From the IMG/VR virus record IMGVR_UViG_2778261544_000002: 13,771 nucleotides of DNA, one strand, 5' to 3'. Below the pieces are notes generated by a model. That model made no database searches. It was not told where the DNA came from and saw nothing but the letters and a program-made list of their open reading frames with translations. Source of the stretch: a virus (taxonomy: Duplodnaviria > Heunggongvirae > Uroviricota > Caudoviricetes). A program made the position numbers and the translations under genes. Position 1 is the first letter of the stretch, and each line of letters starts with the position of its first letter. This document shows, in pieces, positions 1-5,016 of the stretch.

Positions 1-415
1 CTGCTCTTGTTGCGGCTGACGTTGCTTCTGTCTCGCTGGCTGCTGCTTTTGTTTCGCTCGCCTTTGCGTTAGTTTCACTGGTTTTTGCAGCTTTTTGGCT
101 ATTAGCTGCCGCTGTTGCAGAACCAGCTGCAGCACTCTCGCTTTCGGCTGCTGCATCCTGACTGCTTTTCGCCGCAGTTTCGCTGGCTTTGGCATTCGTT
201 TCGCTGGTCTTCGCTGCCGTCTGGCTGGACTTTGCGTTGGTTTCGCTCGTCTTTGCGGCTGTCTCGCTGTTTTTCGCGTTGGTTTCTGATTTTTTGGCTG
301 CTGTCGCGGAGTTTGCCGATGCAGTCTGTGAGGTCGCTGCCGCCTGTGCGCTGTTAGCTGCATTCGTTTCTGAGGTTTTCGCCGCGTTCTTCGATGATGC
401 CGCTGCAGTTTCGGA
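1..415 (-). repeat. In-frame degenerate 21-bp (7-residue) repeat array inside stf
   Basis: From about residue 131 of Stf the protein reads as successive heptads: SETAAAS SKNAAKT SETNAAN ... SETNAKN SETAAKT SETNAKS SQTAAKT SETNAKA SETAAKS. On the plus strand the motif gtttcgctgg recurs at 187 and 208, and gtttcgct at 250 (21-bp period). Boundaries are approximate. Confidence 0.7.
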
Positions 416-805
416 TTTCTTTGCCGCCGCTGCGCTCTGAGAGGCGGCTTCGGCGTTGCGTGCCGCTTCTTCCACCATTTCCTCAAAACGGCGCAATGCC
501 TCCGGCATGACATCATCTTCCGTCATGGCACCGAGAAAATCATTCAGCGTACCTGGTCTGGAACCTTCATAGACGGTAATGGTCCCGGCATGTGAAGGCG
601 GAAAACCTTCAACCAGCAGGGTGACGCTGTACTGGCCATACTCAACATCCATGCTGTAACGCCCGGCTTCATCAGGATTTTCAGAGGCCACCGTGTTCAC
701 CAGTACCGTGGTGCTGTTACGCTTTGCCTTCAGTTGAATAGTGCAGTTCTGTATTGGTTTTCCCGCACCATCTTTCAGCACACCTGAGATTTTTACTGCT
801 GCCAT
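1..805 (-). CDS. stf: Side tail fiber protein Stf, N-terminal part; 3' end of the gene lies beyond the window start
   Basis: ATG at 805..803 preceded by GGAG (minus strand TTTTGTGGAGTGGATATG). Translation MAAVKISGVLKDGAGKPIQNCTIQLKAKRNSTTVLVNTVASENPDEAGRYSMDVEYGQYSV... matches my recollection of the lambda Stf (orf-401) N-terminus, followed by an Ala/Ser/Thr-rich repeat region. Reading frame stays open to position 1 as far as I checked by hand. Not in the ORF track because no stop lies in the window. Confidence 0.85.
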   Translation of the reverse strand, partial: MAAVKISGVLKDGAGKPIQNCTIQLKAKRNSTTVLVNTVASENPDEAGRYSMDVEYGQYSVTLLVEGFPPSHAGTITVYEGSRPGTLNDFLGAMTEDDVMPEALRRFEEMVEEAARNAEAASQSAAAAKKSETAAASSKNAAKTSETNAANSAQAAATSQTASANSATAAKKSETNAKNSETAAKTSETNAKSSQTAAKTSETNAKASETAAKSSQDAAAESESAAAGSATAAANSQKAAKTSETNAKASETKAAASETEATSAATRA

Positions 806-816
806 ATCCACTCCAC

Positions 817-843
817 AAAAAAGCCCGCCTGAACCGGCGGGCT
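817..843 (-). terminator. Intrinsic terminator downstream of lom
   Basis: Perfect 8-bp stem (plus 822..829 agcccgcc pairing with 836..843 ggcgggct), 6-nt loop, then a 5-U run on the minus-strand transcript (plus 817..821 A-run). Confidence 0.75.
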
Positions 844-869
844 GTCATAACACTGTGTTACCTGGCTAA

Positions 870-1469
870 TCAGAATTTATAACCGACACCCACGATGAAA
901 CCGTCAGTGCGCCAGTCACCACTGCCGGAACCTTCATAAGCAAGGTCAATGGCCACGGATTCGGTCGGGTTAAACTGCACGCCAGCTCCCCACGCCAGAG
1001 ACGTGTTGCTGTGGCGACCGTCATCACTCCCGGTCAGCACATCGTGCGTTTTCCCCTTGTTGTCAGTTACGCGGAGATAATCCCCGGAGAACGTCGAAAC
1101 ACGGCTGTAAGCCACACCCGCCATCGCATAAGCACTGAACCATTCATTCACGCGTACAGACGGCCCCGCCATCACGCTGAACCAGCGGTTACGCACTGAA
1201 TCTTCATGCCAGCGGGTATCGCTGTAATGCGTTTTTTGCTCATCTTTGGCATTGGCATAACTGAATGACGTCACCAGCCCCAGCGTGTCCGTAAATTCAT
1301 AACGGTATTTCACGTTAATGCCCTTCAGGTCATCACTGCCTGGCATATCAGTATGGGTCTGAAGATACCCGGCGCTTAGTGTGGACTGATGCTCTGCTGC
1401 GCTCGCTGGCGTACCAGCGGCGACCAGCCAGACTACTGCAGACAGAATAACAGCACATAATTTACGCAT
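870..1469 (-). CDS. lom: Lom/Ail/PagC-family outer membrane beta-barrel protein
   Basis: 199-aa ORF, ATG at 1469..1467 with GAGAGG upstream. N-terminal signal peptide MRKLCAVILSAVVWLVAAGTPASA; C-terminus AYEGSGSGDWRTDGFIVGVGYKF is identical to lambda Lom as I recall it. Position directly downstream of J matches lambda. Confidence 0.9.
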   Translation of the reverse strand: MRKLCAVILSAVVWLVAAGTPASAAEHQSTLSAGYLQTHTDMPGSDDLKGINVKYRYEFTDTLGLVTSFSYANAKDEQKTHYSDTRWHEDSVRNRWFSVMAGPSVRVNEWFSAYAMAGVAYSRVSTFSGDYLRVTDNKGKTHDVLTGSDDGRHSNTSLAWGAGVQFNPTESVAIDLAYEGSGSGDWRTDGFIVGVGYKF

Positions 1470-1493
1470 AATTACCTCTCGCTTTTCTGCAAT

Positions 1494-1517
1494 AAAAAAG
1501 GCACCATTTCTGGTGCC
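1494..1517 (-). terminator. Intrinsic terminator between J and lom
   Basis: Perfect 7-bp stem (plus 1500..1506 ggcacca pairing with 1511..1517 tggtgcc), loop GAAA on the minus strand (GNRA type), then UUUUUUAUU on the minus transcript. Lies 22 nt after the J stop. Confidence 0.75.
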
Positions 1518-1536
1518 CGTATCTGGGTTATAAAAT

Positions 1537-4500
1537 TCAGCTAATCGTGATGCCTGCAGTGGCTTTCTTCATCACCACAACCAGCAAATCGCTGATACTT
1601 GCTGTGGGATACCAGCCATTTACCAGCCATGCCGATACAGAAAATTCCAGTGTCATGACACCACTGCCTGCAGGCATATCAATAACACCCGTATATATCA
1701 GCGTATTATCCAGAGCCGTTCGGTTATAAATTTCAGCACCGTTTTTTCGTACTATCAGACGGCATGAGGAGTAGATATCAGTATGATCTTGCTCATGTTT
1801 AGCGCCACTGAATGCCACCGCCGGGATAACAATTTGCCGGTCAAACGGCTGATCGTCATAAACCCTGACGGTAATGGTTCCTGATGGCCACCGCTCCGGT
1901 GCACGGGAGTCCCGGGGGAAAGCTTTGCCCACTGTTTTAACGAGATCGCCTTCAATCTGGTTCGCAGACAGTTTTCCCAGAACCCGGCAGTTCTCGTTAA
2001 TCGTGACGTTGTTGAGCGTCCCGGAGTTCGCATTCACGTTACCGCTGATATCGGCATTTTTCGCCGTCAGCCGCCCGTCCGGTGTCAGGGAAAATGCCGG
2101 AGGATTACCGCCGCTGGTAATGGTGGGAGCCGTCAGATATTTCAGGAACACTTCATTCATGTATATCTGATCGCCCTGCCCAACAAACATCGGCTTTGTG
2201 TTGCCATTCGCAGGATTAATCATCGCAATCCTGTCTGCCGCCAGCAGCACCTGACTCTGCATGCCGTCAGGGGTGTTTTCAATACCGGCACCAATACCCG
2301 CGATATAAAGGCGTCCGTCCTGCATCTGCTGCAGCTTCACAGCCCACATGCTGTTCAGGTTATTATTTGTATCAACCTGAACCTTCTGTATCTGCTGGAT
2401 CGCTGCACTCTGGTCTTCCAGTTTCTTATTGACGGTCTGCGTGATTTCATTACTGACATCCGTGATGGACGTTCTGATTTCCGCCAGGTCAGGCGCAAGC
2501 TGACCGTTATCAATCTGCGTCCACAACTCCTGAGCCAGATGGGTTTTCCCTATCTCTCCTTTGAAAAAATCCAGATAGCCGGATGCATCATCACTCGGCT
2601 GGCCAACAGCCTCCACGAATGCCGATTTGCCAACAGTATTCACACTGCGGATATAAAAATAATAATCATGGCCCGGCTTGATATTGATACTGGCAGCTAT
2701 CCAGTACAGCGCCGTGCCAAGATAGCGGGCTGTAGTTTCAACCTGCCTGATATCCGCAATCCGCTTTTCCAAGAACCAGAACTCAAACTGTACCGTCGGA
2801 TCATAAACGGCAAGATGGGGCGTGGCGGTTATCTGAAAATAGCCCGGCGTCAGCTCAATCCGCGACGGCGCTGCCGGTGCGGCAATCCGGAACGATACCG
2901 ATGCAGGATCGCCCTGCTGCCCCCAGGCATTTGCCGCCCGGACTGTCAGCCTGTAGCTTCCCAGCGCCAGCTGCCTGAAGCGGTATGTGGTTTCCGTCGT
3001 CCGGGCCGTGCTGACCAGCCGCTCACTGCCGTCATCCGCTGCCACGGTCAGGCGAAGCATAAAGCTCACACCCTTCACCACCTTCGGCGTATCCCAGCGC
3101 GCCAGCACCTGATATTCCCCGCTGTCTGCAGTGACTTCTGCGGTCAGGTGCTGCACCGCTGGCGTCGTGACACCATTCACCGTGCCACTCTGTTCGCCGT
3201 CAAAGTACGCCCCGTTATCCACGATGGCCTCTTTTTCCGGCACATGCTGCACGGCGGTGATGGCATACGTGCCGTCGTCGTTTTCACGGATACTCACGCA
3301 GCGGAACAGTCGCTGGCGCAGCGTCGGCAGCTTCAGCCCCCATACGCTGTATTCAGCAACACCGTCAGGAACACGACTCACTTTTACCTTCACGCCGTCG
3401 GTGACGGACTGAACCTCCACGCTGACCGGATTGCCACTTCCGTCAACCAGGCTTATCAGCGTGGTACCGGAGGATGGCAGCGTGATTTCACGGTCGAGCG
3501 TCAGCGTCCGGGTCTGGCTGTTCACCGCTAGCACACGACCACCGGTGCTGATACCGGCATAGTCATCATCACAGATTTCAATAACATCGCCCGGTACATG
3601 GCGAAGCCCTTCTGCGCCGACGCTGAAATCCACGGTCTGCGTTTCCAGCAGTTCCGTTTTAATCAGCCACAGCCCGGCGCGGTGTGCCTGCCCCCGGCTG
3701 GTACAGCCAAAGGCATCCATCTTCGTGACGTTACGACCGTAACGGAGAATAGCCTGCGTATCTTCAACAAGCTCTGTCGCCGTCTCCCAGCCGTTATTCG
3801 GGTCAATCCAGTTCACCTCAACGGCATTATGGCGGTCCTTCAGGGCGCTGAAGCTGTAGCGGAACGGCGCGCCATCATCCGGCATCACCACATTACTGCG
3901 GTTATAGGTCCACACCTTATCCGATGGCCGGTCCTGCACGAACGTCAGCGTCTGCCCGTTCCATACCGGCATACAGCGCATCGCCGAGCAGAAATCACTG
4001 AGCACATCCCACGCCTTACGCTGCGTGGTCAGGTAGGCATTACAGGTGATGCGCGGCTCCGTGCCGCCAAAACCGTCCGGCACTGACTGGTCGCAGTACT
4101 GGCCGATGACATACAGCGCCCATTTATCCACATCCGCCGCACCAAGACGTTTACCCATGCCGTAGCGCGGGTGGGTCAGCATATCCCACAGACACCAGGC
4201 CGGGTTGTTGCTGTATGCCGGCTTAAACGTTCCGTCCCAGATACCGCTGTATTGCCGCGTCTGCGGGTTATAGTTCGACGGCACCTGCAGAATGCGCCCG
4301 CGCAGATGATAATTACGGCTCACCTGCTGGCTGCCGAACTGCTCCGAGTCCACCTGCACGCCGACCAGTGCCGTGTTCGGGTAGCACTGTTTCACATCGA
4401 TAATTTCGGTGTATGACGACCAGAGCGTTTTGTTCTGCAGCTGGTCTGTAGTGCTGTCCGGCGTCATCCTGCGCATCCGGATACTGAACGGGCGCGGCGG

Positions 4501-5016
4501 CAGGTTACCCACCACCACCGAGGCCAGATACTGTGAGGTGGTTTTGCCTTTAATGGTGATGTCTTTTTCCGTCACCCAGCCACCGTTACGCTGTATCTGA
4601 ACCAGCAGGCGGACTTCCGATGGATTCCTGTCCCCCTTTGAGGTAGTTTCCACCAGTGCCTGCACACCGAAGGTAAAGCGCAGACGGTCGATGTTTGCCG
4701 ACGTGATGGTGCGGGTGATCGGCGTGTCATATTTCACTTCCGTACCCAGCACAGTCTCGGAGCCGGAGGATTCAAAACCTTCCGGCGGTGTCTGCTCCTG
4801 CTCACCTGCCCGGAACACCACCGTGACGCCGGAGATGTTGGTATTCCCCTCACTGTCCAGCACCGGCGTACTGTTCAGCAGCACGCTTTTTAATCCATCC
4901 ACCGGACCTTCAACCGGCCCTTCGCTGATGGCATCGATCACACTCAGCAACTGCGTGGACTTCAGGTTGTCCTTCGCTTCGCGCGGGGTATGCCCCTTAC
5001 TGCTTCCTTTACCCAT
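1537..5016 (-). CDS. J: Tail tip / host specificity protein J (central tail fiber)
   Basis: 1159-aa ORF, ATG at 5016..5014 preceded by GAGGA. N-terminus [34 protein letters not shown]... and roughly the first 800 residues are near-identical to lambda J as I recall it; the C-terminal third is homologous but diverged and about 27 residues longer. Confidence 0.95.

Follow-up and report, generated by a model that had tools for sequence, protein, structure and literature searches.

A lom cassette and its flanking intrinsic terminators in the J-stf spacer of a lambdoid Escherichia coli prophage

The window, a stretch of 13,771 nt, covers the tail-gene end of a lambdoid E. coli prophage in reverse orientation and has an HK97-like tail module. 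Copies about 97.7% identical to the window are carried by many E. coli chromosomes, for example SMS-3-5, and phages PhiR46_1 and 2G7b show 97% identity to it across the J-lom-stf feature. Every gene of the J-lom-stf segment is located on the minus strand, and the elements follow one another in the order J, terminator T1, lom, terminator T2, and stf. The features of this segment and of two further junctions of the tail operon were as follows.

1..816, minus strand: ribosome-binding site (RBS) and 5' part of the side tail fibre gene stf (PF08400); the gene runs off the window
817..843, minus strand: T2, lom's own intrinsic terminator, AGCCCGCC-GGTTCA-GGCGGGCT followed by a T-run (scans, fold)
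818..1490, minus strand: whole lom cassette, 673 bp, delimited as an indel against lom-less phages; the junction is ambiguous by 1–2 T
848..860, minus strand: palindrome TAACAC-A-GTGTTA in the spacer between the lom stop and T2 (read from the sequence)
870..1469, minus strand: lom, encoding a 199-aa precursor of an Ail/Lom-family outer-membrane beta-barrel (PF06316, PDB matches)
1470..1490, minus strand: lom leader GCAGAAAAGCGAGAGGTAATT, the left end of the cassette, with the Shine-Dalgarno sequence (SD) GAGAGG at 1480..1475
1494..1518, minus strand: T1, intrinsic terminator distal to J, GGGCACCA-GAAA-TGGTGCCT followed by T6 (scans, covariation)
1537..5016, minus strand: J, tail tip attachment/host specificity protein (ORF, Pfam and PDB matches)
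10644..10667, minus strand: weaker co-oriented hairpin with T8 at the junction of the T and tape-measure genes (consensus scan)
12085..12107, minus strand: co-oriented intrinsic terminator between the tail-completion and tail-tube genes (consensus and strict scans)

The J gene ends with a TGA stop codon at 1539..1537. Its product matched seven Pfam J-domain families, including Ig_GpJ_C at residues 1029–1159, and J chains in the PDB matched it at E = 0. The stf gene has the SD GGAG at 814..811 and starts with the ATG at 805; the N-terminus of Stf matched PF08400 (phage_tail_N, 8e-68). A tandem array of 42-nt repeats (14 aa, KTSETNAK-type) was found in an Ala/Ser/Thr-rich region of the N-terminal part of Stf (window 168..286).

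The lom gene starts with the ATG at 1469 and ends with the stop codon at 872..870. The Ail_Lom family PF06316 matched Lom over residues 1–199 of 199 (1e-128, 427 bits with a cut-off of 23), and the PDB matches (window 873..1469) were Lom (9wso), OmpX, and Ail, solved eight-stranded barrels. A Sec signal peptide, MRKLCAVILSAVVWLVAAGTPASA followed by AE..., with cleavage between ASA and AE, and a C-terminal aromatic beta-signal (...VGVGYKF, the last residue being Phe) were both present in Lom. The assignment of Lom to the Ail/PagC family, proposed in a first-pass annotation made from the sequence without database searches, was therefore supported, and lom is an accessory outer-membrane beta-barrel gene of the Ail/Lom family. 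The Ail, PagC, and OmpX barrels are homologous to Lom but are encoded by chromosomal or plasmid genes with their own regulated promoters, whereas the copy in the window lies inside a phage late operon. The entry 9wso is the structure of lambda Lom; it contains two Lom chains, one of them named chain C, and therefore may be a complex. It was not co-listed with the PDB entries of J or Stf.

Lambda Lom is regarded as a moron product improving adhesion (PMC3594210, citing Vica Pacheco 1997), and its gene belongs to the small set that the lambda prophage expresses (PMC7067206). Lambda lom is already treated as a prophage-expressed moron and conversion factor (PMC3594210, PMC7067206), the latter being the candidate role suggested earlier for the lom gene of the window. 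Genes for lom were reported in many Stx and non-Stx lambdoid phages (PMC8065619, PMC3430580), and LomW is described as a protein of uncharacterised function (PMC6692519).

In a consensus scan of the window, the three highest-ranking terminator-like sites were T2, the one at 12107, and T1. Exactly the same three sites were recovered by a strict scan (stems of 7 or more perfect pairs with no fewer than 4 G-C pairs, loops of 3–8 nt, and a T-rich tail), all of them on the coding strand and all intergenic, compared to a mean of 0.055 sites expected from 200 dinucleotide shuffles. The hairpins that the first-pass annotation had placed after J and after lom are therefore real, and all its coordinates and spacings were found to be correct when re-read on the minus strand. 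Both T1 and T2 possess the features of intrinsic terminators: a G+C-rich stem, a short loop, an immediate U-run, and the same orientation as the genes. No family was matched in an Rfam scan of the window.

The T2 hairpin (843..822) consists of 8 perfect pairs, 7 of which are G-C, with a 6-nt loop and U6, the T-run extending to 817; its hairpin-only energy was −17.6 kcal/mol. The distance from the T2 U-tract to the stf start codon is 11 nt, in agreement with the earlier reading. T2 was nearly invariant across about 140 loci, and its few changes were one-sided or loop-adjacent; the support for T2 is therefore thermodynamic and positional, not covariational. In lom-less phages, T2 is absent.

The palindrome at 848..860 is perfect; most lom loci keep it, and it is deleted or replaced in a few of them (L111, L202). 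An alternative lom 3' region, with a different hairpin in place of T2, was observed in locus L034 (2098..2260) and 12 similar loci. In this group, a second terminator (AGCCCG...CGGGCT + T7) stands directly before a different stf allele, so a terminator upstream of stf is kept whatever its sequence. A mosaic breakpoint was located inside lom (window 870..1040 vs. lambda, L001).

The T1 hairpin (1518..1499) is formed by 7 Watson-Crick pairs and a terminal G-U pair closed by a GNRA loop, followed by T6 at 1499..1494, and its hairpin-only energy was −13.6 kcal/mol. Covariation was assessed in 17 distinct sequences chosen without use of the hairpin pattern. Compensatory double changes, A-U to G-C and C-G to U-A, occurred at two of the eight pairs, G-U being seen as an intermediate, and 100% of the T1 cells were paired vs. 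34–63% in slid controls. The GNRA loop was retained across relatives as GAAA, GCAA, or GGAA, and the closing pair was flipped from A-U to U-A in the more divergent relative Stx2_14040. An IMG/VR scan was performed with a pattern that allowed 64 arm combinations and did not force complementarity; among the matches listed, 118 of 122 T1 hairpins were fully Watson-Crick. A conserved AU-rich stretch, AAUUUUAUAACCC, is present upstream of T1. Phages with and without lom both keep the AU-rich sequence AATTTTATAACCCAGATAC that separates T1 from the J stop (window 1519..1536, minus strand), and they do so despite differences in the final J codons. It may serve in RNase E-type processing, or it may belong to the terminator module and nothing more.

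The edges of the lom cassette were defined by comparison with the lom-less lambdoid phages Lambda_2E9, ev017, PhiR11_1, and 4A7. In these phages the J stop is followed by AATTTTATAACCC..., the T1 hairpin, TTTTTTATT, and then TGTGGAGTGAATATG, which contains the stf RBS and start codon. In phages with lom, TTTTTTATT is followed by the leader GCAGAAAAGCGAGAGGTAATT, the lom ATG and the rest of the gene, T2 with its CTTTTT end, and the same TGTGGAG. The empty site reads TTTTTTATT / TGTGGAG, vs. TTTTTTATT / GCAG ... CTTTTT / TGTGGAG in the filled site. Delimited in this way, the cassette runs from the 21-nt leader through the lom ORF to a 3' region of 52 nt that holds T2, and T1 lies outside it. The leader is missing from lom-less phages; it was invariant in 80 Lom-selected loci and differed at 3 of 104 sites in the T1-pattern scan, among the matches listed. 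In the same IMG/VR scan, 104 of the 122 T1 sites among the matches listed continued into the lom leader and 18 directly into stf, and no other cargo was found in the J-stf slot of these 122 listed sites. Three diverged lom alleles (window/434, Stx2_14040, and lambda types) have three leaders, all of which begin right after TTTT(TT)ATT.

Since lom-less phages keep T1 joined directly to the stf RBS, T1 is a terminator of the J-stf backbone that is present with or without lom. It still covaries in lom-less lineages and therefore would function independently of lom. The description of T1 and T2 as joint brackets of one lom cassette, given in the first-pass annotation, does not agree with the retention of T1 between the same flanks in lom-less phages. 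As to the direction of the indel, the aligned junctions could reflect either an insertion of lom or a deletion of lom and T2 between the two T-runs.

Three loci were considered as carriers of other J-stf cargo and rejected. The first (L128, 4261..6500) contains a tandem duplication of a J 3' fragment, T1, and lom. In the second (L164, 10508..13960), the lom leader is interrupted after GCAGAAAAGCG by an IS element whose ORFs are IS66-like, and a copy of the T1 region flanks the element on either side. In the third, PPompW_EH1992 (L209, 2732..3058), lom is truncated, and the T3SS effector genes espO and nleG come after it.

The third site of the strict scan (12107..12091) has the structure ACCCGCC-GCT-GGCGGGT + T5, and the stop of the tail-completion gene is at 12128. 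Given the position of this terminator, the true start of the tail-tube gene is the ATG at 12067 (SD AGGAG), not the mechanical ORF start at 12119. The weaker hairpin at the T/tape-measure junction (10667..10652) has the structure AACCGC-TTCG-GCGGTT + T8, and its fold z-score was not significant. The compact co-oriented layout of hairpin, T-run, SD, and start codon thus occurs at two further junctions of the tail operon, which makes the terminators a general feature of the operon and argues against the lom-specific insulation that had been suggested. The late tail operon is punctuated by at least three or four co-oriented intrinsic terminators, T1 and T2 included.

Promoters were searched for with a consensus scan and with a PWM scan in which all combinations of −35, spacer, and −10 were scored. 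The consensus scan of the minus strand near lom gave no promoter-like site. Among starts between T1 and the lom SD, the best PWM score was 1.3, compared to 8–10 for the top sites of the window. Both scans agree with the earlier reading, which had seen no convincing sigma-70 promoter in the stretch from T1 to the lom start. Upstream of the lom ATG, no more than 21 nt belong to the cassette, too short a stretch for a promoter. Judging from the sequence, the lom cassette is without a recognisable sigma-70 promoter; a weak, activator-dependent, or alternative-sigma lom promoter may be compatible with the PWM result.

The best upstream PWM match, TTGATA-16-TGTCAT (1682..1655), lies inside J and recurs at the same place in phages 434 and lambda. 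It was rejected as a J-internal promoter. Its ATTGAyATGCC motif codes for I-D-M-P of J and is conserved to the same degree in phages without lom, so the conservation reflects coding constraint; in addition, the −10 part is variable, and any transcript would still meet T1. Two more candidates were weighed by eye, a leaderless lom start and transcription beginning at TATAAC immediately ahead of T1; both were rejected because of the poor −35 and because the transcript would still contain T1.

The GC content of lom was 0.538 (GC3 0.565), that of the window 0.535, and that of the last 600 nt of J 0.517. No anomaly in the base composition of lom was found in comparison with the window and the 3' end of J. 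With a GC content close to the window average, lom bears no compositional mark of recent import.

The same gene order, J-lom-orf401 (stf), with a hairpin and T-run at both the J/lom and lom/stf junctions, is found in phage lambda (NC_001416, 18903–19650). Between lambda and the window, nucleotide identity is 83% over T2, the last ~170 nt of lom, and the stf start, whereas outside this part Lom has diverged so far that protein identity is 45% overall. T1 of lambda is different and weaker (CGTCCG GGAA CGGGCG, −9.0 kcal/mol, U4) and is followed by the −10-like motifs TATTAT/TATAAA; neither the weaker T1 nor the −10-like motif is present in the window. The J-distal terminators of the lambda late operon (t'J series) were reportedly mapped by Luk and Szybalski in the 1980s.

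Phage 434 (OL657226) and the relatives PhiR46_1 and 2G7b are identical to the window in T1, the lom leader, and T2. The 434 group differs from the window in the J C-terminal and stf alleles, the feature itself being the same. Both terminators and both RBSs are already annotated in the 434 record OL657226, with the same sequences as in the window. Overall, the literature and GenBank already contain lom itself, its location in the J-stf interval, its classification as a conversion gene and moron, and both terminators.

We consider it probable that lom is a late gene transcribed by Q-antiterminated RNA polymerase, carried on a 673-bp cassette 3' of the backbone terminator T1 and having no recognisable promoter of its own. 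The cassette, consisting of the leader, the ORF, and T2, sits in the J-stf spacer directly 3' of the pre-existing T1. Following the lambda late-gene paradigm, Q-modified RNA polymerase would read through all the terminators of the late tail operon during lytic growth, and Lom would be made late, along with J and Stf. While the prophage is repressed, any polymerase that is not antiterminated would stop at them, so that T1 would shield lom and stf from upstream transcription and T2 would keep any lom transcript out of stf. Expression of this lom in the lysogen would depend on leakage through T1 or on a weak non-consensus start and would probably be low. Against a purely Q-dependent reading, lambda lom was reported to be expressed in lysogens, which implies some Q-independent start.

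A less likely explanation, although one with several points in its favour, is that lom is a self-contained moron, constitutively transcribed in the prophage from its own promoter in the 3' end of J or overlapping T1, with T1 and T2 as insulators. In the sense of Juhala and Hendrix, a moron is extra DNA with its own promoter and terminator, a differing composition, and expression from the prophage (PMC3594210). The first-pass annotation had described the locus as a classic moron layout, and this stood in part. DNA containing lom is present or absent between the same two genes in related, otherwise collinear phages, and lom has its own downstream terminator, T2, which is a part of the indel; in addition, lambda lom was reported to be expressed in lysogens and to increase adhesion (PMC3594210, PMC7067206). 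The two textbook features that were not seen are a promoter and a differing composition. The 21 nt of cassette-specific DNA upstream of the ATG contain no consensus promoter, the one decent −35-like motif in J is explained by a coding constraint common to lom-less phages, and a promoter inside J would have to be read through T1 with its −13.6 kcal/mol hairpin and U6. T1 also persists and covaries in phages without lom, and the GC content of lom (0.538) is practically that of the window (0.535).

The founding example of a moron is gp15 of HK97-type phages (PMC3594210). Like lom, the gp15 moron (homologue in HK633) is small, co-oriented, located in the tail operon, and provided with its own terminator before the next gene, and related phages differ in whether they carry it (PMC3594210). 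However, gp15 of HK633 has ~60 nt of promoter-sized DNA after the preceding stop, with no upstream terminator, and its own terminator lies just before the tape-measure gene, whereas lom follows a terminator and has a leader of no more than 21 nt. The departure of lom from the classic case lies in the very feature that the first-pass annotation had emphasised. The T/tape-measure junction of the window (10644..10676) is an empty version of the slot that carries the gp15 moron in HK97-type phages such as HK633.

It is rather unlikely that the hairpins act mainly as elements of RNA stability, processing, or translation context and not as terminators, protecting the 3' ends of the J and lom mRNAs or, as stem-loops ahead of the RBSs of stf, lom, and the tube and tape-measure genes, setting protein yields within the antiterminated late transcript. 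Such a role would agree with the fact that every junction variant (T1-stf in lom-less phages, T2-stf, the stf hairpin of the L034 group, and the tube and tape-measure junctions) keeps a hairpin and a U-run ending 2–12 nt before the next SD, as well as with the conserved AU-rich stretch preceding T1. However, the hairpins show every canonical mark of an intrinsic terminator, among them a conserved run of U5–U8 for which a pure stability hairpin would have no need, and a role of this kind is compatible with termination, the two not being mutually exclusive.

Still more doubtful, by a little, is the suggestion that lom is a promoterless late lytic gene placed between the receptor-binding genes J and stf whose selected role is directed at the phage itself. 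By analogy, Lom could, for example, remodel the outer membrane of the dying or lysogenic cell and thereby limit re-adsorption or superinfection. Llp of T5 and Cor of phi80 and N15 also sit next to receptor-binding genes. In this reading, terminator-ended cassettes would come and go by way of their T-runs, with the backbone terminators as favoured landing points.

Chance inverted repeats without function can practically be dismissed: short hairpins are common and the fold z-score of the T/tape-measure hairpin was non-significant, but three co-oriented intergenic strict sites against 0.055 per shuffle and the compensatory changes in T1 refute this explanation, and the elements are conserved across hundreds of phages.

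For annotation, the refinement is that T1 belongs to the phage backbone and the mobile unit consists of the leader, lom, and T2, without a visible promoter. The lysogenic expression of lambda lom is therefore no ground for assuming that a 434-type lom is expressed in lysogens too. This caution is relevant where lom homologues (LomW) serve as vaccine antigens or are counted as virulence factors.

Two minor observations concern the genes upstream of the J-lom-stf segment. The lambda-type G/T slippery site GGGAAAG is absent from the G/T junction of the window. The SD of the tape-measure gene is just 1 nt from the ATG at 10635, and for this reason the real start of this gene may be the GTG at 10629.
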